A program made the translations under genes and the position numbers. From a bacterium (GTDB lineage: Bacteria > UBA10199 > 2-02-FULL-50-16 > JAJFLM01), in the NCBI GenBank assembly GCA_965216315.1, contig CBDCFN010000016.1, forward strand, positions 64,001 through 128,000: a stretch of 64,000 nt of DNA, in the 5' to 3' direction. This document shows positions 27,474 to 51,198 of the stretch, piece after piece (the first letter of the stretch is position 1; the number at the start of each line of letters is the position of its first letter). The notes under the pieces are model-generated. The model worked only from the letters and a program-made list of their open reading frames with translations, had not been told where the DNA came from and did no database searches.

Positions 27474-30470
27474 TTATTCGCTCGAGTGTGCAGACATATA
27501 TGCGGTAAGTTTGTTTAGATCGATCCGGTCGGTCTCAATGAATCGCGGCATAGACAACCAGAAATAATCAAAAAAGGCTTCAGGTCCCAGGGCCTCTTGC
27601 CACAGTGACTCAAGGGCCACGGTATGTCGCTGGGGATCGCGCTTAATCAGGCGACGCGAGCGGTGGATCAGGTCGACGAGGCTCTGTGCCGTTTGGTTCC
27701 ATTCGCCGCTGATGGCGTAGGACTTGCGCAGTCCGATGAAAACGCGTTCCAACATCCGGTCCGTGCCCCGGCTAACTAGTGCCAGCATCTGTTCAGCGCT
27801 TGCGATATGCCTTTTAAGGGGTTCCGGATTAATATCCAATACGAACTTAGTCCCGTTCAAATAATCAATAGGGTTTTGCGGCGCTAAGGCCTCGGTCCAG
27901 GCCTGAATCAGCTGGTCGCGGTCTTGTATCCCATGATAATAAGCCAGTAGTTTCGCGAAGTCATGGCGCGCCGTTTCGCTCCCATGCTCTTTAAAGAAGA
28001 GGCGACGCTCTCTTTGCTCGCGAGCTAACATGTGAACCAACTTGACAAAAGCATTCGATCGGGAAAGGGGTCGGAGACCTTCGAAACTGGTTCTGCGCCA
28101 AAAAGGTTTCTCTATATACCCTGTAAATTGTTTTGAACGCGATGGATGACGCAGCTTACGCAGGGCTTTGGCCTCAATTTGGCGGATTCTTTCTCTTGAT
28201 ACTTCAAATTTATCTGCCACTTCATCAAATATGTAGTCGCGCCGCTTATCAATGCCAAAGCGCAATCGAATGACTTTTTCTTCGCGTGGCGTTAATGTCT
28301 TCAGGGCGCGAGGCACAAGGTCGGTTAGCTCTATCAAGTCATAAGCTTGATCCGGACTCTTTGTGGCGACAGGTTGGTAGCCAGTTACTGCGGCGGCATT
28401 TATCACGTCCTGAGCTGTACCCGTAGCAATTTCCTCGCACCAACCTGCTTTAAGTTCATGTTCGGCGAGGGCCTCTTCTAATGAGACGATTGCCTCTGCA
28501 GATGAAAACGGTGTCGTAACTGTAAAGACCGGCGAAAACAGCATGTCAGTAATGCGCTGGGTAACAGGAGAGTTTTTTTTAAGGTTAAACTTGCCGTTAA
28601 AAATATGGCTCCAGTTCACATAGGAAGCATGCCCTGTAAAGCCCAGTCTTCGCACGGCCTCGCGAATGGGCCCTATGCCCACCAGGTGAAGCGTCGAGCG
28701 TCGTATCAAGCGGATGAACTCGCGGACCTTGGGACCACCATCCTCTGACAGCGGATGTATATACTCAATTGCTTCCAGCGCATCTTGTTCCCAGACACGC
28801 AAGAGATCGTTAGGTTCAAGCCCCAAGCGTTTGGCTATCATGCGAACCTCATGAGTGGTTCTAGGTAAAGCCCCGTATAGATAACTATTAACCGTATCCA
28901 GATCGGCATCCAAGGCATTTGAGAGGGCCGTCATGTCACCCGCAAATCGCCCGGCCAACACATCCTCTAAGACTTTTTGTAACTGGCCTTCTTCATATTG
29001 AAAGCGGGTGGATTCCGTTGTAAAACGAAACTCCAAGCCGCGACGTGTTCCATGACGGGGTGTGAAAATTCGCCGCTTGACGATACTGTTGGATCGACCG
29101 TGATTTGGTCGAGGGATATTGAGCGGGTCATATTCGATTCCATCGGCGACACGATTCATAATATTAAAAAAGCGTGCGAGGTGCGCCATGTAATCGCGTG
29201 CACTCCCCGCGCTCTTCATTTCGATATTGAGGATCGTGCGTTGTTCTTCATCATCATGCACGCCCAAAGCGCGCCCCACTCGCTGCCCGTAGCGCCGTAA
29301 AGAGCTGCACTCGTAGTCATGGATGATGCCCTCGGTGCCACGGGCCCGATAACCGAAGGCGAGCATGCCGATGCTGATCAGCACCTTAACTCCGGAGCCG
29401 TCGCTATAGCCGGCAACGGCTTCGTCTAGTTCATCGTCCGGCATGCCCGAATAAATCGCTTTGGCGTAACCTTTGCCAAAACGGTCATTAAAGACCTGTT
29501 CATGGATTTGGGCGTGAAGAATCGACGAGGTAAAGAGTAAGGTTTTTTTGTCGTCGAGATGTTGTTGGTAGACATCCGCGACAGCCTGGCTCTGGATAAC
29601 AGAGGCATCGGGAATTTCGAGCCATTCATCCGATTTTTGGTGCAGGTGCGAGCGGATGATGACATCGTATTTTACGGAGAGTCCCTTGATCTTATGGAGG
29701 TAACCGCGTTCCATAAACCAACGTAGTCCCAGCGAAGAAATCTGTCGGCCGGTCCCAAATACTTTGTTCAATCGATATGGATCTGCGGTCAGTCCCAGTA
29801 AAAATTTTCCCGGATTTGCACTGATTTGTTGTTCTGAATCAAGAAAACCGAGATGCTCTAAGATTCGTTGCCAAGTCCCAGCCAGACTGAATGTCGCCTC
29901 GTCGATGACTACCAAAGCGAAACGGTCAGGATCCCATTGCTTGAGATTTTGTGCGCGTCCTAGAGTAAAGGCGCTGGCCAGGACAATATCATGCTTTCCA
30001 GTATAATCCTTGTGCTTGGCATCGATAATGCCGATACGCATTTGCGGTACGAATGATTGCAGGTCATCAAGGATCTGCTTGGTAATGATGCGATAGGGTG
30101 AGATCACCAGGGTCGTTTTGCCTGGAAAAATTTGTGCAGCGGCCTCCGCGAGGGGTCCGATGATCATTGTCTTGCCGGTCTGCGTGGGAGCGCGCATCAG
30201 AATGCGATCATGACCGGCTTGCATGGTCTCGACGACAGAATTTAATTGAGCTCGTTGATAGTCACGGAATTGGAGAATTGATTCGTCAGTAGCAGTGGCC
30301 TCTTCGAGAGGGGCCCAAAAACGAGGGATGCTCCATTCATGCGAAGCTGTGAGAAAAGAGGGTGCATTCCATCCCGATAGAAGGTGTAAGCTCTGTGGTA
30401 CCTGCCCAAGTATCGGAATAGCAATGGCCGGAGTTGCAAAAGGAATACTGATGGGTGCAATAAAACTCAT
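27474..30470 (-). CDS. SF2 (DEAD/DEAH, ResIII-like) helicase fused to an RpoD-like sigma-70 region 4
   Basis: APTQTGKT, VIDEAT, GLTAD, YGQRVGRAL; later LTPREEKVIRLRFGI..EVSRERIRQIEAKALRKLRHPSRS. Start placed at ATG 30470, just downstream of the conserved promoter motif. Confidence 0.85.
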   Translation of the reverse strand: MSFIAPISIPFATPAIAIPILGQVPQSLHLLSGWNAPSFLTASHEWSIPRFWAPLEEATATDESILQFRDYQRAQLNSVVETMQAGHDRILMRAPTQTGKTMIIGPLAEAAAQIFPGKTTLVISPYRIITKQILDDLQSFVPQMRIGIIDAKHKDYTGKHDIVLASAFTLGRAQNLKQWDPDRFALVVIDEATFSLAGTWQRILEHLGFLDSEQQISANPGKFLLGLTADPYRLNKVFGTGRQISSLGLRWFMERGYLHKIKGLSVKYDVIIRSHLHQKSDEWLEIPDASVIQSQAVADVYQQHLDDKKTLLFTSSILHAQIHEQVFNDRFGKGYAKAIYSGMPDDELDEAVAGYSDGSGVKVLISIGMLAFGYRARGTEGIIHDYECSSLRRYGQRVGRALGVHDDEEQRTILNIEMKSAGSARDYMAHLARFFNIMNRVADGIEYDPLNIPRPNHGRSNSIVKRRIFTPRHGTRRGLEFRFTTESTRFQYEEGQLQKVLEDVLAGRFAGDMTALSNALDADLDTVNSYLYGALPRTTHEVRMIAKRLGLEPNDLLRVWEQDALEAIEYIHPLSEDGGPKVREFIRLIRRSTLHLVGIGPIREAVRRLGFTGHASYVNWSHIFNGKFNLKKNSPVTQRITDMLFSPVFTVTTPFSSAEAIVSLEEALAEHELKAGWCEEIATGTAQDVINAAAVTGYQPVATKSPDQAYDLIELTDLVPRALKTLTPREEKVIRLRFGIDKRRDYIFDEVADKFEVSRERIRQIEAKALRKLRHPSRSKQFTGYIEKPFWRRTSFEGLRPLSRSNAFVKLVHMLAREQRERRLFFKEHGSETARHDFAKLLAYYHGIQDRDQLIQAWTEALAPQNPIDYLNGTKFVLDINPEPLKRHIASAEQMLALVSRGTDRMLERVFIGLRKSYAISGEWNQTAQSLVDLIHRSRRLIKRDPQRHTVALESLWQEALGPEAFFDYFWLSMPRFIETDRIDLNKLTAYMSAHSSE

Positions 30471-30481
30471 TGCGAGGCTTA

Positions 30482-30549
30482 TCGGCGCCGATAGGATCTT
30501 GTTGCAGACTAAGTCTTTGAGCGAATTATTTTTGTTCACGAGAGTGAAC
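30482..30549 (-). promoter_or_regulatory. Composite element: palindrome + CAAC-N16-CGATAA promoter
   Basis: GTTCAC-GAGA-GTGAAC (30534-30549), 29-bp gap, CAAC (30504-30501), N16, CGA (30484-30482). Confidence 0.7.
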
Positions 30550-30599
30550 GAGCTGTTTGCTAGCGACGCAGAGAATCAAAGACGACCGGTTTTAAAGGG

Positions 30600-31415
30600 T
30601 TAGAGCCCCATAATCACATCCACTTCATAACCAACCAGAACATTAAGCTGTGCATCTGTCACACCATCTGCTCGGATCCGATCAATTCGTGACGCTGAAA
30701 AACTAATGACATAATAAATGGACTCTAGAATCTCCGCACCGTCCGACGAATCTTTAAGAGCACACTCAATAGTCGACCGTGTCCAAGGTCGCAGCAAATA
30801 ACACCTGAGTAAGTCGGGTAGGGCTTGACTCGCATTGCGATCGCACAAAGTGAAAATCGCGGGAACGACCATTAAGTCGTCCGGATCCCCGAGCAACGTG
30901 CGATTAAGATCTGTTACCGTTTTATCATCGCATTCGAGAAGTCTTTCATGAGCCATGTGGCGAAGCAGCTGCTCTTGCCGGTAATCTAATGCAATATCCA
31001 GTAGCTGTTGCTTAGAACAAGCGTCGAGTTGGTGTGTCAGAATAATCTGCGGATCTGCGTCATTAAGTATCACTCCAGTCATAATTCTTTCAATTAACTT
31101 TTGGTCATCTGGATGTAGCACTACTGGTGACTCGAAATCGATGAACTCATCGACTGATGATGCCATAGCGCTTTCAATTTGATCAGTTAGCAAGGCTAAA
31201 CTCTGCCGTTCCGTCCGAAACGGTGTGGCGGTCAAAGCATAGTTTGAGGGTAAGCAGAGCCGCTGAAATTCGTCATGACTCGCGCTCAGTTGTTCAATAT
31301 TCGACACTGCTGGTTGTGCGTTAATCGTCGCGCTGGTAGCACTACCGGTATTAATTAAGGCCGCGCCGCTCGCGACGGAACAGAGCTGCGCGGATGTTAG
31401 TAAAACGTTATACAT
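30600..31415 (-). CDS. Hypothetical protein with HEAT-like repeats and an uncharged S/T/A-rich N-terminus
   Basis: SD GAGGAGG; segment LLGDPDDLMVVPAIFTLCDRNASQALPDLL resembles a HEAT/PBS repeat. Confidence 0.7.
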   Translation of the reverse strand: MYNVLLTSAQLCSVASGAALINTGSATSATINAQPAVSNIEQLSASHDEFQRLCLPSNYALTATPFRTERQSLALLTDQIESAMASSVDEFIDFESPVVLHPDDQKLIERIMTGVILNDADPQIILTHQLDACSKQQLLDIALDYRQEQLLRHMAHERLLECDDKTVTDLNRTLLGDPDDLMVVPAIFTLCDRNASQALPDLLRCYLLRPWTRSTIECALKDSSDGAEILESIYYVISFSASRIDRIRADGVTDAQLNVLVGYEVDVIMGL

Positions 31416-31455
31416 GGTCGTTCCTCCTCAAATGCCCCACACACGTTAGCGCTTA

Positions 31456-31596
31456 TCGGATGAGCCAATTGAATGTTGAGCGGAATGGCCTTGCAGTCAT
31501 TATTTCCGTTCACGGGAGTGGACGTGTGATCCACTCGAGTGTGCGAATAAATAATTGTATAGCAAAAGTTGCACAACAATAGCTACGGAACGCCGA
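31456..31596. promoter_or_regulatory. Divergent pair of composite palindrome + CAAC-N16-CGA promoters
   Basis: Minus: GTTCAC-GGGA-GTGGAC 31508-31523, gap 29, CAAC 31478-31475, CGATAA. Plus: ATCCAC-TCGA-GTGTGC 31529-31544, gap 29, CAAC 31574-31577, CGA 31594-31596. Confidence 0.72.
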
Positions 31597-31625
31597 CCGC
31601 TTAAAGCGATAGGAGGATCTTATTT

Positions 31626-32966
31626 ATGTACGTTGCCTCAGCAATAGCACTTGATTCATCAGGCCTGATAGCCGCGTCGACTTTTTCAACGGCTCAGATT
31701 AGTTCTGCTCATGTAACAGGAGACGCATCCATGATTGAGCCACCTGCAACGTCCTTGCCCGTTGCCGGGTGGCGCTCTTTTGGTCTACGTTCGGCTTCGA
31801 TTGTCCCCAAGTTATTATTGCCTTTGTCTTTGTTGGCGACGGGTTGTGAGCCGAGGAGTGCGCATACAACTCCTAAAACACCCTCTGTTGTGACAATTTC
31901 CTCCGAGGAAGAAATTCAGGCGGGGCCTCTCAATGATGACCTCCGTCTTGATGAGAGCGATCCGGAGAATCCGCTGCTGATCATTGAGGATTGGCATCTG
32001 TCTCGGTTACAACGGATATTTGTTGGTAGGCTCGGAGTAAAACATGATGTGGCCCAACGTTGGCTTGATGCGCGGCAGATTCCCTTGAGAGAATTGCACG
32101 CCGAGGCGGCCGTGGGAGAGGTGCTCAAGCTGGACGCGCTTCATGCCTTGGCGCGCCTTTATTTGAAATCACCGGCCGTGCTGGGGAACTTTAGCGAGTT
32201 GTATCCATCCGTCGTCGAAAGATTTCTCATTCTTATGCAGGATATCGCAGAGCTGCGGAAGCGTCCTACGATAGACGGTTTGTACGTGAGTCAGGGACGT
32301 CTCTTTGGTAGCCCGCGGTTTAGTGGCGGTTGGCGTTTGTCTCCGTCGGCTTCGGCCCGGATATTTCATGCGCAGTATTATTGGTATGTTCCTGGCGATG
32401 TCGGTTTGACTTCTGAACAACTCATCGCCGAGCTTAATGACCCTGTCGCTTTTTATGAGTCCCTTCCGCAGATGAAAGGGAGTTATGAACTCATCAAACT
32501 GCCAAACGCTGAACCGGGTCGAAAATATTATGAAATGACAGCCGGTCTTGCCGGAAGCCTCGAGTTAAAAACCCTGCTAAATGTGTCCGAGCCGGCGCTT
32601 TTTCTGGGAGGTGGTGTTTTTTTGTCTGATTGGAAGATGGAGGCGATGGATGCCGTGTTACTGCAAATAGCTCTGAACGATATCAGAAGAATCGTGATAC
32701 CTATAAAGAATGGCGGGCATGTTATAAGCGATGTTCGTCGGTCGGCTGTTGTGCCGGAACTACAAAAAGAGTTCAACGATACAGGTGTCCAACTGGTAGC
32801 CTTAGATTATTTGAATGAGGCGGTTTCAGTGTCGGTGCAGGCTGCCCAGCGCAAAGCGGGACAGGTGCCTGTTGAGCTGCGATTCACGTCAGGGTCCATT
32901 TGGAAGACCGGTCGCATGAATCAATGTTTTCCACCAAGAAAGTGTGACGCGCAAATTGCCGAGTAA
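31626..32966 (+). CDS. Hypothetical protein with S/A-rich leader and internal lipobox-like segment
   Basis: SD AGGAGG, 446-aa ORF; KLLLPLSLLATGC at about aa 61-73. Confidence 0.75.
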   Translation: MYVASAIALDSSGLIAASTFSTAQISSAHVTGDASMIEPPATSLPVAGWRSFGLRSASIVPKLLLPLSLLATGCEPRSAHTTPKTPSVVTISSEEEIQAGPLNDDLRLDESDPENPLLIIEDWHLSRLQRIFVGRLGVKHDVAQRWLDARQIPLRELHAEAAVGEVLKLDALHALARLYLKSPAVLGNFSELYPSVVERFLILMQDIAELRKRPTIDGLYVSQGRLFGSPRFSGGWRLSPSASARIFHAQYYWYVPGDVGLTSEQLIAELNDPVAFYESLPQMKGSYELIKLPNAEPGRKYYEMTAGLAGSLELKTLLNVSEPALFLGGGVFLSDWKMEAMDAVLLQIALNDIRRIVIPIKNGGHVISDVRRSAVVPELQKEFNDTGVQLVALDYLNEAVSVSVQAAQRKAGQVPVELRFTSGSIWKTGRMNQCFPPRKCDAQIAE

Positions 32967-33073: not shown

Positions 33074-33718
33074 TTATTTGGGTGTCCGAATCATTTCAAA
33101 TACACCTGGCTTGATCCGAGCATTTGAACTGCGACCTGATGGCGTCACGGGTCCTTTGATGGGATTATTGAGCTGATATGTTTGTGGCTCATCATCTTCA
33201 CTGTCCGATGACTTTGGCGTATCGACCGTAAAGGCATCGGGCTCCGGCGCGGGAAATTCCATGACCGGCTCTTCGGCGTAGGCGACCGTTTCTTCATTTT
33301 CATTCTCCGCCCAGTTGATGACGATTGTGCCGAGATCTATGTCGCCGTGGCCCGCCGGGACGGAGAAGGTAGCGCTAAATTCCACTTCGTTAAGGGGGAA
33401 AAAGACGGTGATGGTTTGGTCAGCGACGACGAGTTGGAGGCCGTAATTGTCGCCGACGTGGACCAGACCTTTGAAAGTACAGTCGGATGAGAGCTGCAGG
33501 GAAAAGGCGTTTTCTATCGGTGCACTGATGGCAACGACTTCGTCGACTTCACAGCTGCCATCAAGGAGGATGCGTCCTGCGACACTACGGAATTGGTGTG
33601 GATTGGTCGCTTCAGTGCCGCCCTGAAAATTCCATTCCGCAGGACCGCCGGCTTGGCAGGCCACGAGGCCCCAGATCAATAATAAACTCGCGACGCGGAT
33701 GAGGCGGATTTTCTTCAT
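33074..33718 (-). CDS. Lipoprotein, partner of the TIGR02147 protein
   Basis: MKKIRLIRVASLLLIWGLVAC lipobox; overlaps the upstream stop (ATGA); paralogous to 41943-42650. Confidence 0.8.
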   Translation of the reverse strand: MKKIRLIRVASLLLIWGLVACQAGGPAEWNFQGGTEATNPHQFRSVAGRILLDGSCEVDEVVAISAPIENAFSLQLSSDCTFKGLVHVGDNYGLQLVVADQTITVFFPLNEVEFSATFSVPAGHGDIDLGTIVINWAENENEETVAYAEEPVMEFPAPEPDAFTVDTPKSSDSEDDEPQTYQLNNPIKGPVTPSGRSSNARIKPGVFEMIRTPK

Positions 33719-34599
33719 GTGCGTTTTTCCTTATTTTCGGTTGCCGTGACCGGTAGGAGCTGCAGGGAGAGGAGTACGACTTCTTCGGGTTCCGTTACGC
33801 TTGAGACCAATTTAAGAATCTCGCCACGAAACTCTTCAATTTTCTTTTTTAGGATCGGAATATCGGAACACTTGATTCCTAAGGTAAGGGCGCTGATATC
33901 GCGTTGATCGGGTTTGACCTCGGCCATGCGATTCCTCATGAGCTCGAGTATGCTGTGATAGTAATTGAAAAGCGGAATGTGTGAGGCATCTTGTCCTGAA
34001 GTGACAAGCGGAGAAGACTGTTCCCATTTGACGGACTCTTTGTCGGAGGTTCGTTTAATAAACTCCATGCGTTCGAGTAGTTCGAGGGATTCCGCGACTT
34101 GACCGGAAGAGATGGCAGGCTTGATGCGCCGGGCGATCCATTCATGGGTACCGTCATATTCCGGGGAGATCGCAAGTTCGCGGACGACCGGATGATACCA
34201 AGTTGAATAGTAGTCGTATTGATACCTGGCGACGGGTTGGAGCCGGTGATATTCTTGCGAACAGACGAGTTTCCGATAAAAGCTATTTTTTTCGTCATGG
34301 GATGTGGCCTGATTAAAAAAGACAAGATTGGTGAAATATTCCGCTTCCGGACGACCGAGAGTGAGGCCGCGGATGAATTTTTTTATACTGGACTCCGTGA
34401 GATTGCGGTCCCCGTCCATGACGAATTTATACACGCTGGGGGAACGTAGTCCGGCCTTGCGGGAGAAGAAGCGATAGGAGAAGTTATATGCTTGTTTGGC
34501 CTGCTCCAGCCAGTCGCGCAGAAATTGGCGATAATCGAGATAGTCAAAGATACTGACTTCCTGCTTAGGTTTCGATTGTGTCTCTTCAAGTACGAACAT
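33715..34599 (-). CDS. TIGR02147 family (DUF4423) HTH-containing protein
   Basis: IFDYLDYRQFLRDW, FSYRFFSRKAGLRSPS, YYSTWYHPVVREL, RDISALTLGI. Confidence 0.9.
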   Translation of the reverse strand: MFVLEETQSKPKQEVSIFDYLDYRQFLRDWLEQAKQAYNFSYRFFSRKAGLRSPSVYKFVMDGDRNLTESSIKKFIRGLTLGRPEAEYFTNLVFFNQATSHDEKNSFYRKLVCSQEYHRLQPVARYQYDYYSTWYHPVVRELAISPEYDGTHEWIARRIKPAISSGQVAESLELLERMEFIKRTSDKESVKWEQSSPLVTSGQDASHIPLFNYYHSILELMRNRMAEVKPDQRDISALTLGIKCSDIPILKKKIEEFRGEILKLVSSVTEPEEVVLLSLQLLPVTATENKEKRT

Positions 34600-37316: not shown

Positions 37317-37326
37317 AACAGCATTT

Positions 37327-37437
37327 TCGCGATGAGAGGGGAATCGTTGCGGGAGAGTTGACCTCGCATCACATAAAGCGTCCACATCCGTGGATGATAA
37401 TTTTCTTCCACGACAACTAAGTCTTGGTCCTCAGCGA
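37327..37437. promoter_or_regulatory. Shared palindrome with divergent CAAC-N16/17-CGA promoters
   Basis: GTCCAC-ATCC-GTGGAT 37380-37395; minus CAAC 37349-37346 (gap 30) N16 CGAAAA; plus CAAC 37414-37417 (gap 18) N17 CGAGAA. Confidence 0.6.
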
Positions 37438-40772: not shown

Positions 40773-40785
40773 GATAGGCCCGGTA

Positions 40786-41057
40786 TCGAAGCAGAAAGCG
40801 ATGAGTTGTGGCTTTTTTGTTTAGGGGTCGTGTGAGGCCTCGGCCCCAATGAAACGGAGCAGGCTGCGCGCGACGCCCGTATTTTTGACCGCAATAAGTA
40901 CCTGTTGTTATGGAAAACTGATGAAAGTGATTATCTGTTAACACGAGTCAACAGATAAGATCTTCGTTCACAGCTGTGAACAGATATTCCCGATTAAATG
41001 CAACTACCAGTTGTCTTAAACTGACATCGACGCGCAACTCTCATGACAATAGTCCGA
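40786..41057. promoter_or_regulatory. Divergent control region with two palindromes and four CAAC promoter-like sites
   Basis: Palindromes GTTAAC-ACGA-GTCAAC 40937-40952 and GTTCAC-AGCT-GTGAAC 40966-40981; consensus promoters minus 40808-40786 and plus 41035-41057; palindrome-linked CAAC at 40907 (gap 29) and 41001 (gap 19) with imperfect -10. Confidence 0.7.
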
Positions 41058-41077
41058 TAATACTGTGAACACTGGAA

Positions 41078-41926: not shown

Positions 41927-41942
41927 CGCAAAGGAAATGATT

Positions 41943-42664: not shown

Positions 42665-42723
42665 GTTCACACCCGCGAACAGATAATGACGTCATTCAAC
42701 AACATTCGTTTTCACATTGTCGA
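42665..42723 (+). promoter_or_regulatory. Composite palindrome + CAAC-N17-CGATTA promoter
   Basis: GTTCAC-ACCC-GCGAAC 42665-42680, gap 19, CAAC 42700-42703, CGA 42721-42723. Confidence 0.6.
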
Positions 42724-42802
42724 TTACATAGTAATCGTAATATTTGCGGCAGATCTGAATGTGCTCATGACAACATTTATATGGCGGAGGTTTTTTTTGA
42801 AG

Positions 42803-44161
42803 ATGAAAAATTTACTAGTTGCTCTCGGGATATGTCTTTTCACCTTATCAGCGCCGTCTATACATGCCGGACCGTTTTTGTACGTCACAAACTCAGCTGA
42901 TGATACGGTATCAGTTATCGATACGGCAATCAACGAAGTTGTCGGAGATACGATTTCTGTAGGGAATATACCTGATAAAATTGCCGTCACGCCTGATGGT
43001 AGCCGCGTGTATGTTACCAATTATGGTGACGATACGGTTACAGTTATTGATACAGAGACAAATCAGGTTGTTGGTAATCCCATTGCCGTCGGTAATGGAC
43101 CCGAAGGTATCGAAGTCGGCCCTGATGGCAATTTTGTTTATGTCGCGAATAGTTTGGCGGGGAGCCTGTCGGTGATAGATGTGAGCACCAACAAGGTGAT
43201 TGCAGAGCCGACGGTTGGGGCATCGTCTTGGGAACTTGCCTTAAGTTCCGATGGCAATTTTGTTTATGTCACAAATTATGCGGATGACTCGGTGACGGTC
43301 ATAGATGCTGCCACTAACCAAGTTGTGGGCACTCCAATTGCATCGGGAGAGGCGGATTATGCCATAGGATCTCATCCTGACAGCAATTTCGTTTATGTAG
43401 CGCATAACCAAAACAATACGGTTTCAGCGATCGATACCTCCCTCAATCAGGTCATTGCAGGTCCGATTCCGGTTGGAACGGAGCCCTGGAGCCTGGCACT
43501 GAGTCCCGATGGAAAATACGTTTATGTTGGTTATTTTGGGGGTGGAATCCTTTCTATTATCGATACACAAAATAACGAGCTCCTTGGAGACTCAATAGTG
43601 TTGGGGACGGACATCACGGCCGATCAATTAGTATTCTCTGCCGATGGAAGTCGCTTGTATGCTGTGTCAAGAACGGGTGGAAGTGTTTATGTGATAGATG
43701 CGGAATCTAATGAAGTTATCGGTAGTCCGATTCAGGTAGGTGGCAGTGCAGTAGGGATCGCTATTACACCACCACTCCAAGCCCTTAGTTCCGTGGCGGA
43801 ACTCAATTTTCCGGCGACAGCGATAGGCGAGACCAGCACCGCTCAGAATGTTGAAATCTATTTTGAAGTGGGTGTCGGCGCGTTGAGCTTTGGTGAGACT
43901 CAAGTCACAGGGCCGTTCAAGATTGCCGATACAAGCTGTGCTGAAACGATTTCACTGCAACGCAATGAAACCTGTTCTATTAGTGTCGTTGCTGAACGGA
44001 CCGAAAATAGCGCGCAAGCAGGTATGCTGAAGGTAACGACTCATGATGATAGTGGCACAGTTCTTAATATTGCATTAAGCACCCCTGAAATCGTCGTGCC
44101 CTCCGATGGCGGTGATGGTGCAGGTAATCCCTCCGCAGGTGGATGCAGCTTATTAAGATAA
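42803..44161 (+). CDS. Secreted YVTN beta-propeller repeat protein with C-terminal Ig-like domain
   Basis: Signal peptide; about 7 repeats YVTN..DDTVSVIDT; ends AGGCSLLR. Confidence 0.9.
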   Translation: MKNLLVALGICLFTLSAPSIHAGPFLYVTNSADDTVSVIDTAINEVVGDTISVGNIPDKIAVTPDGSRVYVTNYGDDTVTVIDTETNQVVGNPIAVGNGPEGIEVGPDGNFVYVANSLAGSLSVIDVSTNKVIAEPTVGASSWELALSSDGNFVYVTNYADDSVTVIDAATNQVVGTPIASGEADYAIGSHPDSNFVYVAHNQNNTVSAIDTSLNQVIAGPIPVGTEPWSLALSPDGKYVYVGYFGGGILSIIDTQNNELLGDSIVLGTDITADQLVFSADGSRLYAVSRTGGSVYVIDAESNEVIGSPIQVGGSAVGIAITPPLQALSSVAELNFPATAIGETSTAQNVEIYFEVGVGALSFGETQVTGPFKIADTSCAETISLQRNETCSISVVAERTENSAQAGMLKVTTHDDSGTVLNIALSTPEIVVPSDGGDGAGNPSAGGCSLLR

Positions 44162-45322: not shown

Positions 45323-45348
45323 AATGAACTATTGTCTTGGTACCGACA

Positions 45349-46467
45349 TCAAGACCAGGTGAATTTTTGGAGTGCCGCTTCGAAACGATCGCGTCGGGGA
45401 TGGCTAGCGAGATCTTGTTTGAGCTGTTTCTGAAAGAGCAGCAGTAATTCTTTGATTGCTTTATCGCGCTCTGGGTTGGTCGTTTTGAGATAGATTGGGA
45501 GGCTGGCGATAAAACCGTCGTAGGCGTTGTCGCGCGCGAGGCGGATCCCGCTCAAGAATGAGTCCAGGGCGTAATCGACATCGAGCTGCTGTTGTAAATC
45601 GGGAGGAGCGTCGTGATAACAGCGCTCGAACGCGTCGTACATAAAGAGTGCATCCGCGCGTTCCTCCTCACTGAAGAGGCCCCAACGATAGGCATGGTCG
45701 ATATCGTGATAGGCGGCCTGGAGCGGATGCGCATAACTCTGATGGAAGCGTTGGGGGCTGCAGGCTAGAAGCAGGCAGCGGCGGGCCGGTGTGTCCTCGA
45801 GCATGTCGCGCAAATCAGGCAAGGTGCTGATGCGGGCCGTCAGTTGGAGTTCGAGCGGTGACGCGATGTTGAGGGTTTGCAAGAGCCCGACGAGTAGGGC
45901 GAGGGGCGGCAGGCGGTGGATGCGCGTGCCCTCCGGAAAGAAGAATTCCTGGAGTCCTGCACCGGCGGGATGGCCGACCCCTAAGTTTCTTAAGTTGTTG
46001 GTCGCCGCGGCTTTGGCAGCACTCAAATACAAGACGCGTTGACTTTGTTTGTGGCGAACGGTGACAAAATCGCCGGGTTCATTCGCGAGCACCAGTTCAT
46101 GCATTTCCAAGGCGCCGCCGGCCGGGAAATCGGTTAGCCATCGTTCTACGACGGGCGGACGCTCGGAGATCGCGTCGAGCGGGACCGTGCGGATCTCGTC
46201 GAGAAAATTATGGGGCTGACCCGCTTTGTCTTCGTAGCCCTGCTGTAATTCAGTCGCGAGTGAAGTGCGGAGACTGTTCATCAGAGTGTCAGCCGCCTGA
46301 AATACCGTTACCCGCTGTTGCAAGGCGAGTCGTATCCTCTGTTGGCTCTGTTGTTGACCGTTACGCTGAACGACCGAATTTGCCTGGTTGAGATTGCTGA
46401 GCGTCGTCTGCAAAAAGGCGTAGTTCGCCGGCGTCAAGGCCGTCAATGTTGAGGGGAGTGAAACCAT
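45349..46467 (-). CDS. Hypothetical protein with uncharged S/T/L/N-rich N-terminus
   Basis: 372-aa ORF; contains YHDIDHAY (HxxxH-like) near the C-terminus. Confidence 0.7.
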   Translation of the reverse strand: MVSLPSTLTALTPANYAFLQTTLSNLNQANSVVQRNGQQQSQQRIRLALQQRVTVFQAADTLMNSLRTSLATELQQGYEDKAGQPHNFLDEIRTVPLDAISERPPVVERWLTDFPAGGALEMHELVLANEPGDFVTVRHKQSQRVLYLSAAKAAATNNLRNLGVGHPAGAGLQEFFFPEGTRIHRLPPLALLVGLLQTLNIASPLELQLTARISTLPDLRDMLEDTPARRCLLLACSPQRFHQSYAHPLQAAYHDIDHAYRWGLFSEEERADALFMYDAFERCYHDAPPDLQQQLDVDYALDSFLSGIRLARDNAYDGFIASLPIYLKTTNPERDKAIKELLLLFQKQLKQDLASHPRRDRFEAALQKFTWS

Positions 46468-46476
46468 GCTGTCTTG

Positions 46477-46534
46477 TCGGGGACGCTGGACGAATGTTGT
46501 CGTTTAGCTCCAGAAAGTGTTGACGCGAGTAAGC
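46477..46534 (-). promoter_or_regulatory. Composite palindrome + CAAC-N16-CGACAA promoter
   Basis: GTTGAC-GCGA-GTAAGC 46519-46534, gap 19, CAAC 46499-46496, CGA 46479-46477. Confidence 0.65.
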
Positions 46535-46650: not shown

Positions 46651-46659
46651 TTTCAGGAC

Positions 46660-47811
46660 ATGAAACCGGATCAATTCAAAGGCAGCACGGCGGGGAATTG
46701 TATTCTAACAGACCGAGACTATTGGGCTTTTATCCCTAACCCCCTTCCGCCCCCGATCGAGATCGATTGGCGGCTGGCTGACGTCTTATCGGAGGCGGAT
46801 CGGGCCTTGAGTGAACTGTCCGGAGTGGGCCGCTTGCTACCGAATCCCTACCTGTTGATTAATCCCTACGTCCGGAAGGAGGCGGTCTTGAGCTCCCGGA
46901 TCGAGGGGACGCAGGCGAGCTTAAGCGATCTCTTTTATTTCGAAGCGGAGGAGCCGGAGTCCCCGTCGGTTCCCGATGTCCGCGAAGTCCATAATTACGT
47001 CTTGGCTATGAACCACGGCCTCGAGCGCCTCAAGACACTACCGATCAGCAACCGCCTCGTACGAGAGATCCATGCCGTCTTGATGGAAGGGGTCCGAGGC
47101 GGAGCGGCCACGCCGGGAGAATTTCGGCGTTCCCAAAACTGGATCGGACCTCCCGGCTGTACCTTAAAGGAGGCCACGTTTGTGCCGCCCCCGCCGACTG
47201 AAATGAATCAGGCTTTAACGGAGTGGGAAAAGTTTTTACATGCACCCACCGAACTGCCCCCGCTGATTGTGTGCGCGCTCATGCACTATCAGTTCGAGGC
47301 GATCCATCCCTTTCTGGATGGCAATGGGCGGGTGGGGCGGCTGCTGATCACCTTCTTCTTGTGCGAGCGTAATCATCTTTCGGAGCCGTTGCTCTATCTG
47401 TCGGATTATTTTGAAAGGACTCGATCCGATTACTATCGTCATTTACTTGAGGTCAGTCAGTCGGGCACATGGCGCGCCTGGCTGGAGTATTTTCTAAAAG
47501 GCGTTGCGCTTCAGGCCAAGGATGCCTGTGAAACCGCGACCCGCCTGATGGACCTACATCAGAAGTATCGTACTCAGGTGGGAACAAAACGCGTTCCTGC
47601 GGCGGCCTATCAGCTGGTCGATCAAATTTTTATTACCCCCGTTCTTTCTATCGCGAAGCTCGCTCGTGAATGGAAGATGTCTTATCCCAAGGTGACCCGT
47701 GGCATAGAACGACTTGTCAAAATAGGAATACTCAAAGAAGTGACGGGACAACGTCGCAACCGTCTCTTTGCGGCCGATCAACTGATCCGACTTTTGACCC
47801 GTGAAAAATAA
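46660..47811 (+). CDS. Fic family protein (Fic_N/DUF4172 + Fic + wHTH)
   Basis: HPFLDGNGRVGR active-site motif; inhibitory motif SSRIEG. Confidence 0.95.
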   Translation: MKPDQFKGSTAGNCILTDRDYWAFIPNPLPPPIEIDWRLADVLSEADRALSELSGVGRLLPNPYLLINPYVRKEAVLSSRIEGTQASLSDLFYFEAEEPESPSVPDVREVHNYVLAMNHGLERLKTLPISNRLVREIHAVLMEGVRGGAATPGEFRRSQNWIGPPGCTLKEATFVPPPPTEMNQALTEWEKFLHAPTELPPLIVCALMHYQFEAIHPFLDGNGRVGRLLITFFLCERNHLSEPLLYLSDYFERTRSDYYRHLLEVSQSGTWRAWLEYFLKGVALQAKDACETATRLMDLHQKYRTQVGTKRVPAAAYQLVDQIFITPVLSIAKLAREWKMSYPKVTRGIERLVKIGILKEVTGQRRNRLFAADQLIRLLTREK

Positions 47812-47814
47812 GGT

Positions 47815-47872
47815 GTTCACAACTGTAAACACTTTTCGCGCCGTTTTCACAACTTATGCTGATACATTTCGA
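47815..47872 (+). promoter_or_regulatory. Composite palindrome + CAAC-N16-CGAAAA promoter
   Basis: GTTCAC-AACT-GTAAAC 47815-47830, gap 19, CAAC 47850-47853, CGA 47870-47872. Confidence 0.7.
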
Positions 47873-47953
47873 AAAGCCGTAAGGATTCGGAGATGGATCC
47901 GAGTTGTGCCGTGACGATTTTCGCATCATTTGGTGAAGAAAAGAGTCGGAACC

Positions 47954-48991
47954 ATGTCATTTATCGCCAGCATCCCGATATCGGGGTATCTAAACAGCTT
48001 TCAGGTATTGCCGGATGCCGGGCAGATGGTCGTTCCGATCGTCTACGGTAGCCTCGGGCGTCCGTCGGCGGTCACCGTTAAAGCGGAGGTACTGACCTCG
48101 GAAAATGTCGATCGCTTCGCGGAGGCGGCTAGAGCATTGTTGCAAGGTCGAAAATCTCCGGGGCCGGTGCTATCAGAGGGTTGGGACATCCAGCGGGATC
48201 CTCTCGATGATCTCCTGGGTCGCAAGCGTATTCACGTCATCGAGCAGGTTGTGGGCTCGGGACCTTGGAAAGAGATTCAACTCACGGAGTCTGGTTCGAC
48301 CGATGAGGTTGGGCTTGTCGTGAATGTCAGCCAGCACCGAAACTCTCGTTCGGTTACGATGGGCATGGATATAGGCCGGGCCCGTAGACCTGCTTCTCTT
48401 GATGACTGGATTCTCACCAACGACTTTGCGATGCGATTGGAGGGACTTGCCGTTCGCGGGCTTAAGGAGTACGTCGGCCTATTGCCGGAGCACCGCGTGG
48501 ATCTCGTCTGTCATGTCTTCTTCAAGAGCCTGGGGTTGATGCTCGATGAGGAGGAATTCGAGGATGACTCACTTCCCCCACGCTTGAGAGAACTATTTGA
48601 AACGATGAAGCAGGTGAAACCTTCGCGGGAAAGAATGTATGAGCAGGCCGTGGAGATATTCGGTGAGGAAGAAGCGAAAAAGATCATGAATCGAGAGCCG
48701 AGGCAGGGGACGTCACGGGATGTCTACGTCCAATCGCATATCAGAGATCTCGGGCCGGGTGAGACATGCTCCTTTGACTATCGTGTCGAGAAAGAAAGTC
48801 TCGGTTTTACGGAGGAAGTCGCGATTTATTTTTTTTCATCAAGTCATCACTTTCCCTGGCCGCTCCCCACGTCGGTCCGCCCGATGTGGGACTGGTTGCT
48901 CTCGGATCGCTCCGAACCGGACGAAAATATGCGTCAAAAATATTATGAAATGACAGAGCGGACCTACGGCCATCTAAAACTCCGTAGTTGA
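47954..48991 (+). CDS. Hypothetical protein
   Basis: 345-aa ORF starting [10 protein letters not shown]; no motif recognised. Confidence 0.7.
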
Positions 48992-49022
48992 ACCTTCGCA
49001 TTCATACCGCTATCTTGAGTGT

Positions 49023-50180
49023 ATGGATGCCCCGATTTATCTGGACAACCACGCGACCACGCCCGTGGACCCCAAGGTCCTCGAGGCGATGCTGCCGTAC
49101 TTTCAAGAGCGGTTCGGCAATGCGGCGAGCAAACAGCATTCTTATGGCTGGGTGGCCGAAGAGGCCGTGGAGACCGCGCGCGAACAAATCGCGAAGCTGA
49201 TTGGCTGCAAGGCCAAAGAGATCGTTTTTACCAGCGGGGCGACGGAGGCCAACAACCTCGCCTTGTTCGGGGTCGCCCAGAGCTATCGTCCCCAAGGGAA
49301 GCATATTATTACGGTCGTTACCGAACACAAGGCCATCCTCGATCCGGTTGCCTATCTGGCAAAGAATGGATTCGACGTCACGTATCTTTCCGTCGATAAG
49401 CAAGGACACATCGATCTCGATCGGCTTGAAAAGGCGATTACGGATCAAACGATTTTAATCTCCGTCATGGCGGCGAACAATGAAATCGGGACCCTGCATC
49501 CTCTCGCTGAAATTGGTCAGTTCGCCAAGACGAAGGACGTTTTTTTTCACACCGACGCCGCCCAGGCGCTCGGAAAAATCCCATTAAATGTTGAAGCGAT
49601 GGGTATCGATTTAGTCAGCCTTTCCGCGCATAAGCTCTATGGGCCCAAGGGGATCGGGGCCCTTTATGTCCGGTCCCGTGATCCGCATGTGCAGTTGCTT
49701 CCTCAGATCTTGGGGGGCGGCCACGAACGCGGGTTGCGTTCCGGGACCTTAGCGGTTCCGCTCTGTGTCGGCTTTGGGGCGGCCTGTGCGCTTGCGCATC
49801 AGGTGATGCCGGAAGAGGCGCCGCGGATGAAGGGCCTCCGCGATCGTTTGCAGGACGGAATTTGCAATCAATTGGATGCCGTCCTTTTAAACGGCGATGC
49901 CGCGCGGCGCTTGCCCAACAATCTCAACCTCAGTTTTGCGGGGACGCAGGCCGAGGCCTTGATGATGAAACTTGATACGGTCGCCTGTTCCTCCGGTTCG
50001 GCGTGCACGACCGCGGACCCCAAACCGTCGCACGTGCTCCGTGCTTTAGGTCTGGGTGAAGATCTCGCGCATGCCGCCCTGCGCTTTGGCGTAGGACGCT
50101 TCAATACCGAGGCGGAGATCGACGTGGCGATCGAAAAGATCGTTGCCGCCGTCAATGAGCTCCGCGCAGGGTCTGGATAA
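49023..50180 (+). CDS. iscS: Cysteine desulfurase (IscS/NifS type)
   Basis: [39 protein letters not shown]. Confidence 0.93.
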
Positions 50181-51198
50181 AAATTTCCAGTGATTCCGTT
50201 AAGAGATCAGCGAGTTGTGCCGCTGCGGTGACTTCAGGGTCGCCGCCGTCATCGGCCGGCACAACAGCGCCGAGCCTTTGCAGCTCCGATCCGACGACAT
50301 CACCTAGGGTCATCGAATTCCGCGGCAGATCCAAGGGCAGCGGGATTTCTTCGCTCTCATCATCCAGCAGCTTGATGTCGGGGCTCGAAGGGACGATTTC
50401 GTCATCGATACTGATGCGGCTCTGCGGCGCGCCCATGGTCTCTTGAAAGAGCGTGAGAGCGAGTTCACGGAGTGGGTCAGCAACGTTGAAGGCGGCCTGC
50501 AACTTGGCTTCAAAGGGATCTATCTCATCAGAAATTTGTCCCAAGAAAACCAACGCTGATTGGAGACGCATGGTAATCGCCAGGGCGGCTTCGTATTGAC
50601 TATGGATCGCATCGACATCGGACAAGAGGTCGATCGAGAGTGACGAGAGCGAGGCGTCTAAATCCAACAGGCTCGGTAAGGTCGGTCGGAATCCCATAAT
50701 GAGTCGGGCCGCGTTGATCGTTGCCGTGTCTTGGGTACGCGCCAAATGAGGCTGTTCGAGGAGAAACTCTAATTCGCGCGCCCGCGCGGCAAAGGCGTCT
50801 TCTCCTTCCAACTCGATATCACGGAGAATCGCGAGTGCATCATCGTTGTCAGCAAGGGCCTCGACGTAACTGATTTCATGAGTGACCGAGTCGCCTTCTC
50901 GAACGATAGAAAAGAATTCGTGGATCAGATCGAGTGGCGTCTCGCCTTCGTCAACCTCAGTCTGAGGGGCTGCATTGAGTAGCTGGTTGGCACTATCAGC
51001 CAAAGAATGCTCGCCGATTTCCTCGAGGGCCGGTCCCACGCTGCGCAGATAAGGGTCGACTTCCTCAACCGACTCCGTTTGCAGGGCATCATCCAAAAAA
51101 CTCTGGACGAAAGACACATTATAGGCACTGAGATTGGTAACACTGGCCAGGGCAAGTGAACTCGTGTTCAATGATAGCGACGGAATAGCCGAAAACAT
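50152..51198 (-). CDS. Hypothetical acidic protein with uncharged Ser/Leu-rich N-terminus
   Basis: SD GAGGAG; 348-aa ORF; CAAC-N16-CGATGA upstream (51270-51245). Confidence 0.72.

Follow-up and report, generated by a model that had tools for sequence, protein, structure and literature searches.

Eight open reading frames (h1–h8) lie between positions 27,474 and 51,198 of the window, the 64,000-nt stretch of DNA that was analyzed and whose positions are used as coordinates throughout. All gene calls and starts in this study come from our own simple caller, a non-standard gene finder that takes the first ATG in each frame. Each ORF is present where an earlier note on this DNA had placed it, and in 8/8 the first in-frame ATG is where the leader quoted in that note begins:

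h1, 27474-30470, (-): 998 aa; leader MSFIAPISIPFATPAIAIP, then a helicase region (ResIII/DEAD/Helicase_C) and sigma-70 region 4
h2, 30600-31415, (-): 271 aa; leader MYNVLLTSAQLCSVASGAALINTGSATS; no Pfam family
h3, 31626-32966, (+): 446 aa; leader MYVASAIALDSSGLIAASTFSTAQISS; no Pfam family; no promoter motif
h4, 36057-37316, (-): 419 aa; leader MFSSTVLSSSVVPTQLVSSTYS; hydrophobic stretch FPFILGFMLFYFGSCTIPTISLAGYFMSLGIAVVILY close to the C terminus
h5, 39975-40772, (-): 265 aa; leader MSALVLQIPAAMTAA
h6, 45349-46467, (-): 372 aa; leader MVSLPSTLTALTPANYAFLQTTLSN; member of a small family in which an H-D-x-x-H motif is invariant
h7, 47954-48991, (+): 345 aa; quoted leader of 15 letters
h8, 50152-51198, (-): 348 aa; quoted leader of 22 letters, with LALAS inside it

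The earlier note proposed that these otherwise unrelated proteins share a charge-poor N-terminal leader without Lys in the first 30 residues, and both features are present in all eight ORFs (Lys in 0/8; depending on the protein, its first Lys is found between residues 43 and 232). Charge of any kind first appears at position 45, 41, 10, 25, 16, 35, 21, and 36 in h1 to h8, respectively; h3 and h5 are weaker cases because of an Asp at residue 10 and an Arg at residue 16. Ser, Thr, Ala, Ile, and Pro make up 0.46–0.75 of residues 2–25, compared with a genome mean of 0.34, which ranks the eight between the 81st and 100th percentile of the proteome. As the remainder of each protein has a charged fraction of 0.22–0.31, the bias is local to the leader. 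We defined a strict leader as one in which the first K/R/D/E falls at residue 20 or later and there is no hydrophobic core. Six of the 19 genes called between positions 27000 and 52300 pass this test, and the probability of at least six is 1.1e-7 at the rate measured for internal Met residues (0.0129). Both h1 and h7 open with MSFIA, as the note had observed, and when each protein was compared with the whole called proteome by BLASTP, no match among the eight was found at E ≤ 1e-3. Their description as orphans is only partly accurate: Pfam assigns no family to six of them at E ≤ 0.1, h4 has a single weak match within the phylum, and one search tool found no relative of h8 among 5.8 billion proteins, but h1 has known domains, h3 is similar to a portion of a giant protein from this genome (24.5% identity over 269 residues), and a search of 1.84 billion representatives places 30 proteins in the h6 family at E ≤ 0.001.

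Seven of the eight ORFs are preceded by a site resembling a sigma-28-like promoter (pattern GCAAC-N15-17-CGATAA), supporting the co-regulation that had been suggested; two of the sites are weak and h3 has none:

h1 site, 30479..30504, (-): CAAC-N15-CCGATAA, 8 nt before the ATG; spacing tested
h2 site, 31453..31478, (-): CAAC-N15-TCCGATAA, 37 nt before the ATG
h4 site, 37324..37349, (-): CAAC-N15-GCGAAAA, 7 nt before the ATG
h5 site, weak, 40783..40808, (-): CAAC-N15-TCGATAC, 10 nt before the ATG; relaxed pattern only
h6 site, 46474..46499, (-): CAAC-N15-CCGACAA, 6 nt before the ATG
h7 site, weak, 47850..47875, (+): CAAC-N15-TCGAAAA, 78 nt before the ATG
h8 site, 51245..51270, (-): CAAC-N15-GTCGATGA, 46 nt before the ATG

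These sites bear on whether translation truly begins ahead of the leaders. As the -10 box lies only 6–10 nt before the ATG of h1, h4, h5, and h6, leaderless mRNAs are implied, and the next in-frame start of h1 is codon 83, within the helicase domain. Strong Shine-Dalgarno sequences precede h2 (GAGGAGG, 7 nt upstream of the start), h3 (TAGGAGG), and h8 (ATGAGGAG). Within its family, h6 is conserved best at the N terminus, which starts at the same Met in relatives at 27–28% identity, and the promoter motif is also found at the h6 homologue in genome G054. Two starts are less secure, that of h5 because an in-frame ATG also occurs at codon 12 and that of h7 because its Shine-Dalgarno sequence is weak and alternative starts exist at codons 19 and 25. 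Overall, the true starts do not appear to lie downstream of the leaders.

The leader class is real and far larger than the eight ORFs from which it was recognized. Strict leaders begin 155 of the 2365 called proteins; the same test applied at internal Met residues gives 156/12065, a rate five times lower. Roughly 30 of the 155 are expected as background, and these include housekeeping enzymes with Gly-rich N termini, such as GpsA and MurG. About 1 protein in 20 carries the leader, and most of these have no known relatives; no Pfam family was found in 100 of the 145 leader proteins scanned. The leader is carried by mutually unrelated proteins, as a looser class of 195, with the first 45 residues trimmed, falls into 170 BLAST groups. 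Across the proteome, the position of the first K/R/D/E is bimodally distributed, so that leader proteins form a separate class rather than the tail of a distribution. A box, [LIVMF][LIVMFA]A[SAGT][SGTANH] (in short hLLA[S/A][S/G]), occurs at residues 9–34 in 66/155 strict leaders and 65/2118 other proteins; its start peaks at residues 14–18. At codon position 2, leaders have C at 0.387 and A at 0.135, compared with 0.235 and 0.301 in the remainder of the proteins, with no change at codon position 3. Since the bias is confined to codon position 2, it is a constraint at the level of protein. With this confinement, the bimodality, and the normal charge of the bodies, the composition of leader proteins differs from that of ORFans in general.

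The link to the promoter also extends across the genome. The motif precedes 62/155 strict leader genes and 87/2210 others; for the looser class, the counts are 63/195 and 86/2170 (odds ratio 11.6, p = 7e-33), and a control with the wrong spacing gives 0 and 3. In 31 of the 62 promoter-bearing leader genes, only 4–12 nt separate the -10 box and the ATG, so that the start is fixed. The regulon is large, with 346 sites at a score threshold of 16 compared with 99 in the spacing control.

Across the phylum, the leader is patchy. Its frequency is 6.2% in this genome, 5.7% in G024 of the same family, 3.4% in G053, 1.7% in both G012 and G055, and 0.5% in G023. Of the 93 genomes of the phylum, 91 encode a protein of the FHIPEP (SctV/FlhA) family, and samples of three FHIPEP-bearing genomes contain leaders at background level only (2/116, 3/178, and 1/199); the machine alone is therefore not predictive of the leader class. 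Orthologue pairs between this genome and G024 retain the leader while its sequence diverges, in one pair with 60% identity from residue 30 on, and for some orthologues the presence of the leader is the sole difference.

What might read such a leader? The genome encodes one non-flagellar type III cluster, so an export apparatus is at hand. SctV exceeds its NCBIfam cut-off (806 bits versus 692), whereas the FlhA model remains below its own (698 versus 772), and the SctN ATPase exceeds the cut-offs of SctN and a FliI NCBIfam model alike. We also found SctR/S/T family proteins, an SctL/FliH protein, a YscO/FliJ-like protein, FliM- and FliN/SctQ-like proteins, two FHA-YscD proteins, and, encoded elsewhere in the genome, SctU. 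FHA-domain proteins thus belong to the cluster. The cluster also contains a gene for a sigma factor whose best family is FliA/WhiG, yet which scores under the FliA family cut-off (133 bits versus 189.6); by Pfam, no FlgM-like anti-sigma factor is encoded in the cluster. Genes directly downstream of sctT carry both the leader and the promoter. No flagellin, rod, filament, or hook genes were found in the genome, and neither were VipB, T6SS, phage sheath, VirB4, or Tad genes. The original interpretation, export by a type III or flagellar route, is therefore upheld in part: leader, promoter, and non-flagellar type III machinery are present, but a flagellum, a needle, and a dedicated secretin were not found.

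With moderate confidence, we favor the explanation that the leader is a lineage-specific, unusually sequence-defined substrate signal of this single type III system. The leader spans some 25–35 residues, in which Met is followed by S/T/L/I/V, then L/F, and then a stretch rich in S/T/A/L/G, with an hLLA[S/A][S/G] box from about residues 14–18 in approximately four of ten leaders and charge appearing only from about residue 30. It would be attached to at least 170 unrelated protein families, mostly without known domains, whose genes may be transcribed from the sigma-28-like promoters, often as leaderless mRNA, with the FliA-like sigma of the cluster as the probable reader of this promoter class. 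The leader would then guide the protein, still unfolded, to the export gate (SctV, SctU, SctRST, and the ATPase SctN), and the proteins may leave the cell. Several observations count against a type III signal. Neither a needle protein (PF09392) in the genome nor a secretin inside the cluster was found, and small acidic chaperone-like neighbors are not enriched (8/155 leader genes versus 209/2210). In other systems, SctP/FliK proteins are themselves secreted substrates, and the SctP/FliK-like protein of this cluster has a charged N terminus. Several ordinary-looking cytoplasmic signaling proteins, such as PAS-histidine kinase-receiver hybrids, are among the leader proteins. Finally, residues 11–60 of h6 are confident helices in a structure model, not a disordered tail, and the h6 "leader" includes part of a structural helix that is conserved in the h6 family.

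If the type III system is not the reader, one possibility is that the leader does direct export or delivery but is recognized by some other machine, specific to this family and a few lineages. The patchiness of the leader beside near-universal FHIPEP, a fixed box suggestive of a dedicated receptor, and the lack of a detected needle or dedicated secretin would fit, yet with VipB, phage sheath, VirB4, and a second T2SSE ATPase all absent no candidate presents itself, and both the genes flanking the type III cluster, with their leaders and promoters, and the sigma gene to which the promoter class points lead back to type III; we consider this explanation rather unlikely. It is also possible, but unlikely, that the proteins remain in the cytoplasm and that the leader is a degron, a regulatory extension, or a tag for a pole, condensate, or compartment. 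Among leader proteins in which domains are known, many belong to cytoplasmic types (hybrid histidine kinases, GGDEF, phosphofructokinase, glutamate dehydrogenase, RtcB, aminotransferase), 134/155 have no hydrophobic segment beyond the leader, and the h6 N terminus is modeled as folded helices. However, microcompartment shell and encapsulin genes were not found in the family's three genomes, the bodies are poor in Cys (0.5% versus 1.2%) and Lys (3.5% versus 5.4%), which distinguishes them from resident soluble proteins, most leader proteins evolve fast and lack relatives, their genes cluster in islands (60/155 have a neighboring leader gene, with about 20 expected), and they share their promoter class with the type III-flanking genes.

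An atypical Sec signal peptide, in which the n-region has no charge, the S/T/A/L core is weak, and cleavage occurs at LA[S/A]|S, would deliver the proteins to the periplasm and perhaps onward through type II secretion. Signal peptidase I prefers small residues at -3 and -1, which the A-[SA]-[SG] part of the box supplies at residues 14–22, where cleavage would be expected, and nearby lies a type II locus that looks complete, including a large secretin and an ATPase. Nevertheless, this is quite improbable: there is no K or R in the first 15–20 residues, the charge-free zone continues for a median of 9.5 residues after the box, and ATP-, GTP-, and NAD-dependent cargo enzymes would be useless in the periplasm. 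Moreover, since the maximal 12-residue hydropathy of leaders has a median of 1.44 (5th–95th percentile 0.96–1.81), compared with 2.69 for 306 proteins of the same genome with classical signal-peptide features, the two are distinct classes. That the leaders reflect wrongly called starts, or a composition common to young or spurious ORFs, is largely refuted and now very improbable. Our first-ATG caller did supply the starts, the h5 and h7 starts are unsecured, and some members are clear mis-extensions or housekeeping proteins (a thiolase with an upstream ATG, besides GpsA and MurG). Against this stand the lower internal-Met rate, the leaderless promoters that adjoin the ATG of 31 leader genes, the Shine-Dalgarno sites of h2, h3, and h8, the fixed position of the motif, the retention of the leader in orthologues, the conservation of h6 from the same Met, and a Cys content in the bodies far below the ~3% that we estimate for random sequence.

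A type III substrate signal of this kind would have both precedents and peculiarities. Like the effector signals of injectisomes (Yersinia Yops and Pseudomonas syringae Hops), the leader occupies the first 20–30 residues, is rich in Ser/Thr/Ala, lacks acidic residues, is not Sec-like, and is found on unrelated, fast-evolving proteins. P. syringae effectors follow three rules: Ser makes up at least 10% of the first 50 residues, position 3 or 4 is I/L/V/P, and D/E do not occur among the first 12. The three hold together for 69/155 strict leaders, 124/2210 other proteins, and 4/8 of the window ORFs. Unlike injectisome signals, the leader excludes basic residues as well, over about 30 residues; the machine that would serve it has no detected needle or secretin, and chaperone-like neighbors are not enriched. 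Published type III signals are N-terminal and serine-rich, with high S, L, and A, and as no consensus is reported for them (PMC3589343), the positioned hLLA[SA][SG] box is atypical. According to PMC12428579, the T3SS* of Myxococcus xanthus is a type III basal body that lacks needle components and whose substrates are unknown, to which the needle-less basal body here may be analogous. The nearest SctV in named genomes is from Archangium metagenome-assembled genomes (53% identity). In M. xanthus, the partner of T3SS* is a Tad-like Kil pilus, whereas we saw no Tad/Kil partner, since the sole T2SSE-family ATPase of the genome adjoins the large secretin gene.

The regulation is reminiscent of flagellar class 3 genes. 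In flagellar systems, sigma-28 (FliA) drives expression of late type III substrates, and the -10 box CCGATAA, the 15–17 nt spacing, the large regulon, and a cluster sigma nearest FliA/WhiG are of this type. However, the -35 box is GCAAC rather than the sigma-28 consensus TAAA, filament, hook, and rod genes are lacking, and the sigma is below the FliA cut-off.

In its scale, the leader set resembles the large arsenals of intracellular bacteria, such as the Legionella Dot/Icm effectors and chlamydial type III substrates: it makes up several percent of the proteome, is mostly lineage-specific, is encoded in islands, and mixes kinases, transferases, and repeat proteins. Legionella Dot/Icm is a different secretion route with a C-terminal signal, whereas the leader is N-terminal, and paired hydrophobic segments like those of Inc proteins are not enriched (2/155 leader proteins versus 33/2210). 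Among leader proteins in which a known family bears an N-terminal extension, enzymes that use nucleotides or cofactors predominate. Such cargo includes Ser/Thr kinases, GGDEF and RelA/SpoT proteins, helicases, a lipid-kinase domain, glycosyl- and acyltransferases, Exo_endo_phos proteins, and pentapeptide repeats. Cargo that uses nucleotides and cofactors would be sensible within another cell.

The earlier note had proposed that eight ORFs in the window share a charge-poor N-terminal leader, rich in Ser, Thr, Ala, Ile, and Pro, that may serve as a non-Sec, type III or flagellar export signal. All eight ORFs were found as described, and every leader starts at the first ATG of its frame:

27474–30470 (−), h1: first charged residue at 45; promoter-like site 6–10 nt from the ATG
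30600–31415 (−), h2: first charged residue at 41; promoter-like site 37 nt from the ATG; strong Shine-Dalgarno site
31626–32966 (+), h3: first charged residue at 10; no promoter-like site upstream; strong Shine-Dalgarno site
36057–37316 (−), h4: first charged residue at 25; promoter-like site 6–10 nt from the ATG
39975–40772 (−), h5: first charged residue at 16; weak promoter-like site 6–10 nt from the ATG
45349–46467 (−), h6: first charged residue at 35; promoter-like site 6–10 nt from the ATG
47954–48991 (+), h7: first charged residue at 21; weak promoter-like site 78 nt from the ATG
50152–51198 (−), h8: first charged residue at 36; promoter-like site 46 nt from the ATG; strong Shine-Dalgarno site

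As had been noted, these leaders are poor in charge, Lys is absent from the first 30 residues of all eight (it first appears between residues 43 and 232), and none begins with a Sec n-region, the first Lys or Arg falling at residues 16–54; charged residues make up 22–31% of the remainder of each protein. The eight are also mutually unrelated, with no cross-match at E ≤ 1e-3 in BLASTP comparisons with the whole called proteome. Their description as orphans stood only in part: six lack a Pfam family (E ≤ 0.1), but h1 has known domains and h6 a small family. For h8, no relative was found among 5.8 billion proteins. The same stretch holds 11 further genes, of which 9 have Pfam families; by our own reading, the two without one start like lipoproteins, with a K/R-rich n-region, a hydrophobic core, and Cys. 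In h1, the leader precedes a superfamily-2 helicase (ResIII/DEAD/Helicase_C) joined to sigma-70 region 4 (Pfam), and the next possible start is already within the helicase domain; h1 residues 635–787 are similar to a protein at G000:C15:163667 of the same genome (38.7% identity, 155 residues). The h5 and h7 starts are less secure than the others.

Several neighboring features were recorded alongside the leader genes:

33715–34599 (−) and 33074–33718 (−): DUF4423/TIGR02147 regulator gene, then a lipoprotein gene
41078–41926 (+) and 41886–42650 (+): second DUF4423/TIGR02147 regulator-lipoprotein pair
34730–34705, 34644–34619, and 41035–41060: sigma-28-like sites upstream of both regulators
37481–39967 (+) and 42686–44161 (+): beta-helix protein with CSLREA-like repeats and YncE-like beta-propeller, both with classical signal peptides and a common C-terminal tail, GGCSL[M/L]R, which may be a clade-specific sorting tag
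46660–47811 (+): Fic/DOC family protein (Fic_N plus Fic) between h6 and h7, with an ordinary charged N terminus

The leader extends well beyond these eight proteins. From the 2.96-Mb assembly (16 contigs, 98.3% complete), a home-made codon-usage caller that begins each gene at its first ATG yielded 2365 proteins of 80 residues or more, in which the position of the first Lys, Arg, Asp, or Glu is bimodal, with a second mode at residues 20–40. This residue falls at position 20 or later in 200 of the 2365, and 155 of these, which have no hydrophobic core, form our strict class; a looser class holds 195. In a control consisting of the stretch after every internal Met of the same proteome, the rate is 1.29% (156/12065) versus 6.55% at N termini, and therefore about 125 proteins lie above background. 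Six of the 19 genes called in window 27000–52300 belong to the strict class (P = 1.1e-7 given the control rate).

The leader composition is anchored to the initiator Met, with a charge-free zone that reaches approximately residue 30: K/R/D/E account for 0% of residues 2–10, 0.8% of residues 11–15, and 6.5% of residues 16–20, compared with 22.9% from residue 61. Position 2 favors S, L, T, I, or V and positions 3–4 favor L, F, I, or A, after which S, T, A, L, and G are abundant. A box, [LIVMF][LIVMFA]A[SAGT][SGTANH] (consensus L-L-A-S-S), occurs at residues 9–34 in 66/155 strict proteins versus 65/2118 others; its start peaks at residues 14–18, and the charge-free zone extends a median of 9.5 residues past it. 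At codon position 2, leaders differ from the rest of the gene (C 0.387 versus 0.235, A 0.135 versus 0.301), while position 3 is the same in both, and selection therefore acts on the peptide and not on the RNA. An RNA-level cause, namely that leaderless translation calls for a 5′ coding region rich in pyrimidines, is ruled out by the unchanged third position; synonymous sites have a slight excess of A that is present in non-leader genes too. A profile HMM of the leader (MAFFT and hmmbuild) was too degenerate for searching genomes, recovering 7 of the 195 looser-class proteins at E < 0.01. We conclude that a genuine N-terminal module, acting at the protein level, is shared by unrelated, mostly lineage-specific proteins.

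What does the module carry? With the first 45 residues removed, BLAST sorts the 195 looser-class proteins into 170 groups, of which the largest have 6, 5, and 4 members, and 100 of 145 scanned leader proteins lack a Pfam family (65/85 and 35/60 in two batches). Some of the class is background, consisting of housekeeping enzymes whose domain begins at the first residues (GpsA, MurG, a phosphotyrosine phosphatase). Elsewhere the leader is a genuine N-terminal extension, as on two Ser/Thr kinases, GGDEF and RelA/SpoT proteins, two helicases, a lipid-kinase domain, a glycosyltransferase, an acyltransferase, a methyltransferase, Exo_endo_phos, two FGE-sulfatase proteins, pentapeptide and HEAT repeats, four Laminin_G_3 paralogues, HAD, several PAS/histidine-kinase/receiver hybrids, phosphofructokinase, glutamate dehydrogenase, a malic-enzyme-like protein, a class V aminotransferase, and RtcB. 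Leader proteins have a median length of 411 residues versus 292 for the others, 134 of the 155 strict proteins have no hydrophobic segment past the leader, and their genes cluster, with 60/155 adjoining another leader gene versus approximately 20 expected. Their bodies (residue 61 to the end) bear an independent compositional mark: Lys is 3.5% versus 5.4%, K/(K+R) 0.30 versus 0.49 (p = 5e-36), and Cys 0.5% versus 1.2%, with Arg, Trp, and Gln enriched. The Lys and Cys depletion might serve to avoid ubiquitination or disulfide bonds. Inc-like paired hydrophobic segments (2/155 strict proteins versus 33/2210 others) and small acidic chaperone-like neighbors (8/155 versus 209/2210) are not enriched.

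Many of the leader genes share a promoter-like motif, GCAAC-N15–17-(N)CGAT(A/G)A. Exact CAAC-N-CCGATAA occurs 39, 15, and 13 times at spacings of 15, 16, and 17 and 1–5 times at other spacings, and at the threshold chosen there are 346 sites genome-wide versus 99 in the spacing control. The motif lies within 150 nt upstream of 63/195 looser-class genes versus 86/2170 others (odds ratio 11.6, p = 7e-33); with wrong spacings, the same comparison gives 0 and 3. The −35 consensus of sigma-28 is TAAA. The sigma-28-type co-regulation proposed earlier is upheld: the promoter precedes 62/155 strict genes versus 87/2210 others, and among the eight ORFs only h3 has no site, those of h5 and h7 being weak. 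In 31 strict leader genes, and in only 11 other genes, the −10 box ends 4–12 nt before the ATG, which implies a leaderless mRNA and thereby fixes the start.

The h6 family provides a closer view of one leader protein. This family, not previously described, has 30 members (P0002–P0031) at E ≤ 0.001 among 1.84 billion representatives, which share an invariant H-D-x-x-H motif. In relatives from the genomes G053 and G054, identity is 27–28% and the best-conserved part is the first 30 residues, from the same Met. In the structure model (pLDDT 70.6, pTM 0.74), residues 11–60 form confident helices, and Foldseek against the PDB gave no match at E ≤ 0.001. In one family member, the h6-type domain is the C-terminal end of a 2772-residue protein; Pfam detected no informative domains on the long relatives. 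SctW/HrpJ/TyeA gatekeepers were nearest in a language-model atlas (scores 0.77–0.81, a lead only by the tool's own rating), a reading left unsupported by a PDB-sequence profile search (nothing below E = 0.15), Foldseek, and Pfam.

If the leader directs export, which machine could read it? The genome encodes one non-flagellar type III cluster. Its single FHIPEP gene scores over the SctV model (806 bits, cut-off 692) and under the FlhA model (698 bits, cut-off 772), and the SctN ATPase is over its NCBIfam cut-off; SctR/S/T-family proteins are over the Pfam cut-off, with the equivalog NCBIfam models just under theirs. Near the FHIPEP gene are genes for two FHA-YscD proteins, a TPR protein like LcrH/SctY/CdsG (below cut-off), a FliG-like protein, SctL/FliH, the ATPase, a YscO/FliJ-like protein, a FliK/HpaP-like protein, FliM- and FliN/SctQ-like proteins, FliO, SctR, SctS, SctT, and a FliA/WhiG-like sigma factor (133 bits, under its cut-off of 189.6). 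We read a putative SctJ-like lipoprotein from its N-terminal sequence; the SctU gene lies elsewhere in the genome. Among the large genes just downstream of sctT, two encode strict leader proteins (717 and 491 amino acids), and the promoter is present at the 491- and 601-amino-acid genes. A scan of named genomes with SctV found distant relatives only (best 53% identity). The flagellar part of the earlier proposal did not survive: axial proteins (flagellin, hook, rod) have no match in this genome (PF00669, PF00460; controls match in 4/14 reference genomes).

The needle protein PF09392 was not found in the genome (the reference genomes held no positive control), and the type III cluster has no secretin. 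The only large secretin adjoins the genome's single T2SSE-family ATPase and for this reason was read as type II; since this ATPase is the only one of its family, type IV pili and Tad pili seem absent altogether. A stand-alone mini-secretin of 253 residues (L003:1414–2172 (−), approximately 16.6–17.4 kb of G000:C16), comprising Secretin_N and a partial Secretin domain right at their Pfam cut-offs, is encoded between genes for a class I (Glu/Gln-type) aminoacyl-tRNA synthetase and ketol-acid reductoisomerase. Possibly it supplies an outer-membrane component that some system otherwise lacks.

It is fairly probable that the leader is a type III substrate signal, both because its composition fits published signals, described as N-terminal, serine-rich, and high in S, L, and A (PMC3589343), and because the leader genes are co-regulated with, and partly located beside, the only injection-type machine detected. 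Like type III signals, the leader lies within the first 20–30 residues from the initiator Met, is rich in Ser and Thr and poor in charged residues, and is too weakly hydrophobic for Sec. However, known signals are degenerate, with no consensus reported (PMC3589343), whereas hLLA[SA][SG] stands at a fixed position in 66/155 leaders, and we therefore class the leader as a variant type III signal. It also differs in excluding basic as well as acidic residues, in occurring in some lineages only, while nearly the whole phylum has the machine, and in its association with a machine lacking a visible needle or secretin. The T3SS* of Myxococcus xanthus is likewise needle-less, and the export cargo of this and other such systems is described as unknown (PMC12428579).

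Other explanations must be weighed against a type III substrate signal. That an unrecognised export machine reads the leader seems unlikely; VipB, phage sheath, and VirB4 are all missing from the genome. An intracellular tag, which would suit those carriers that are histidine kinases or metabolic enzymes, is in our judgment quite unlikely, and a microcompartment or encapsulin cargo tag was rejected, as three genomes of the family contain no shell or encapsulin genes.

It is improbable that the leader is an atypical Sec signal. Hydropathy and the P. syringae type III signal rules served as signal measures, and leaders have a median maximal hydropathy over 12 residues of 1.44 versus 2.69 for 306 classical signal-peptide-like N termini of the same genome, which are a separate class; leaders have neither the positive n-region nor the hydrophobic core of approximately 10–15 residues that define Sec signal peptides. 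Nor do they resemble Tat signals, as the class definition leaves no Arg before residue 15 and hence no twin-arginine motif, or lipoprotein signals, since the last box residue is S, G, A, or T rather than the lipobox Cys and the proteins are Cys-poor. An artefact is very improbable: true starts could have lain downstream of the leaders, but they are secured by leaderless promoters, Shine-Dalgarno sites (a motif in use in this genome), and conservation, including that of the h6 Met.

To follow the putative type III signal among relatives, we sampled 200–393 kb of each with the same caller. FHIPEP is present in 91/93 species genomes of the phylum (one class). Strict leader-like N termini occur in 18/289 genes from 20 equally spaced segments of this genome, 17/298 in G024 of the same family (9 with the promoter), and 10/297 in G053 of another family, versus 2/116 in G012, 3/178 in G055, and 1/199 in G023 (same order, other family); G025, of the same family, has clear leaders downstream of the promoter. 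In orthologue pairs between this genome and G024, the leader is kept and its sequence has diverged, while some orthologues differ only by leader presence. RtcB (G000:C16:1285486, −) has a 30-residue leader-like extension absent from the 53%-identical G024 protein, and a serine hydroxymethyltransferase-like gene has a 42-residue leader-like extension in G024 that is absent here. Either genuine modular gain and loss or mis-called starts could account for such differences.

Prediction of type III substrates is difficult, as their signals lack a consensus. Our tentative proposal is that the hLLA[S/A][S/G] leader is a dedicated, sequence-readable address, which in one family of an uncultured phylum marks approximately 5% of the proteome (125–155 proteins of unrelated families) for delivery by a type III machine that lacks needle and secretin. 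If so, a type III class would for the first time have a consensus signal, and a needle-less system its first substrate list. The candidate substrates can be read from the genome by three independent marks: the positioned N-terminal box, the charge-free zone, and a promoter class linked to the secretion cluster's sigma gene. They yield a testable signal of approximately 30 residues, and sister lineages that have the same machine, with or without the leader class, offer a natural comparison. Among the candidate effectors that they list are kinases, a RelA/SpoT domain, GGDEF, and helicase-sigma fusions, which could rewire another cell, a hint that this bacterium lives by acting on other cells.
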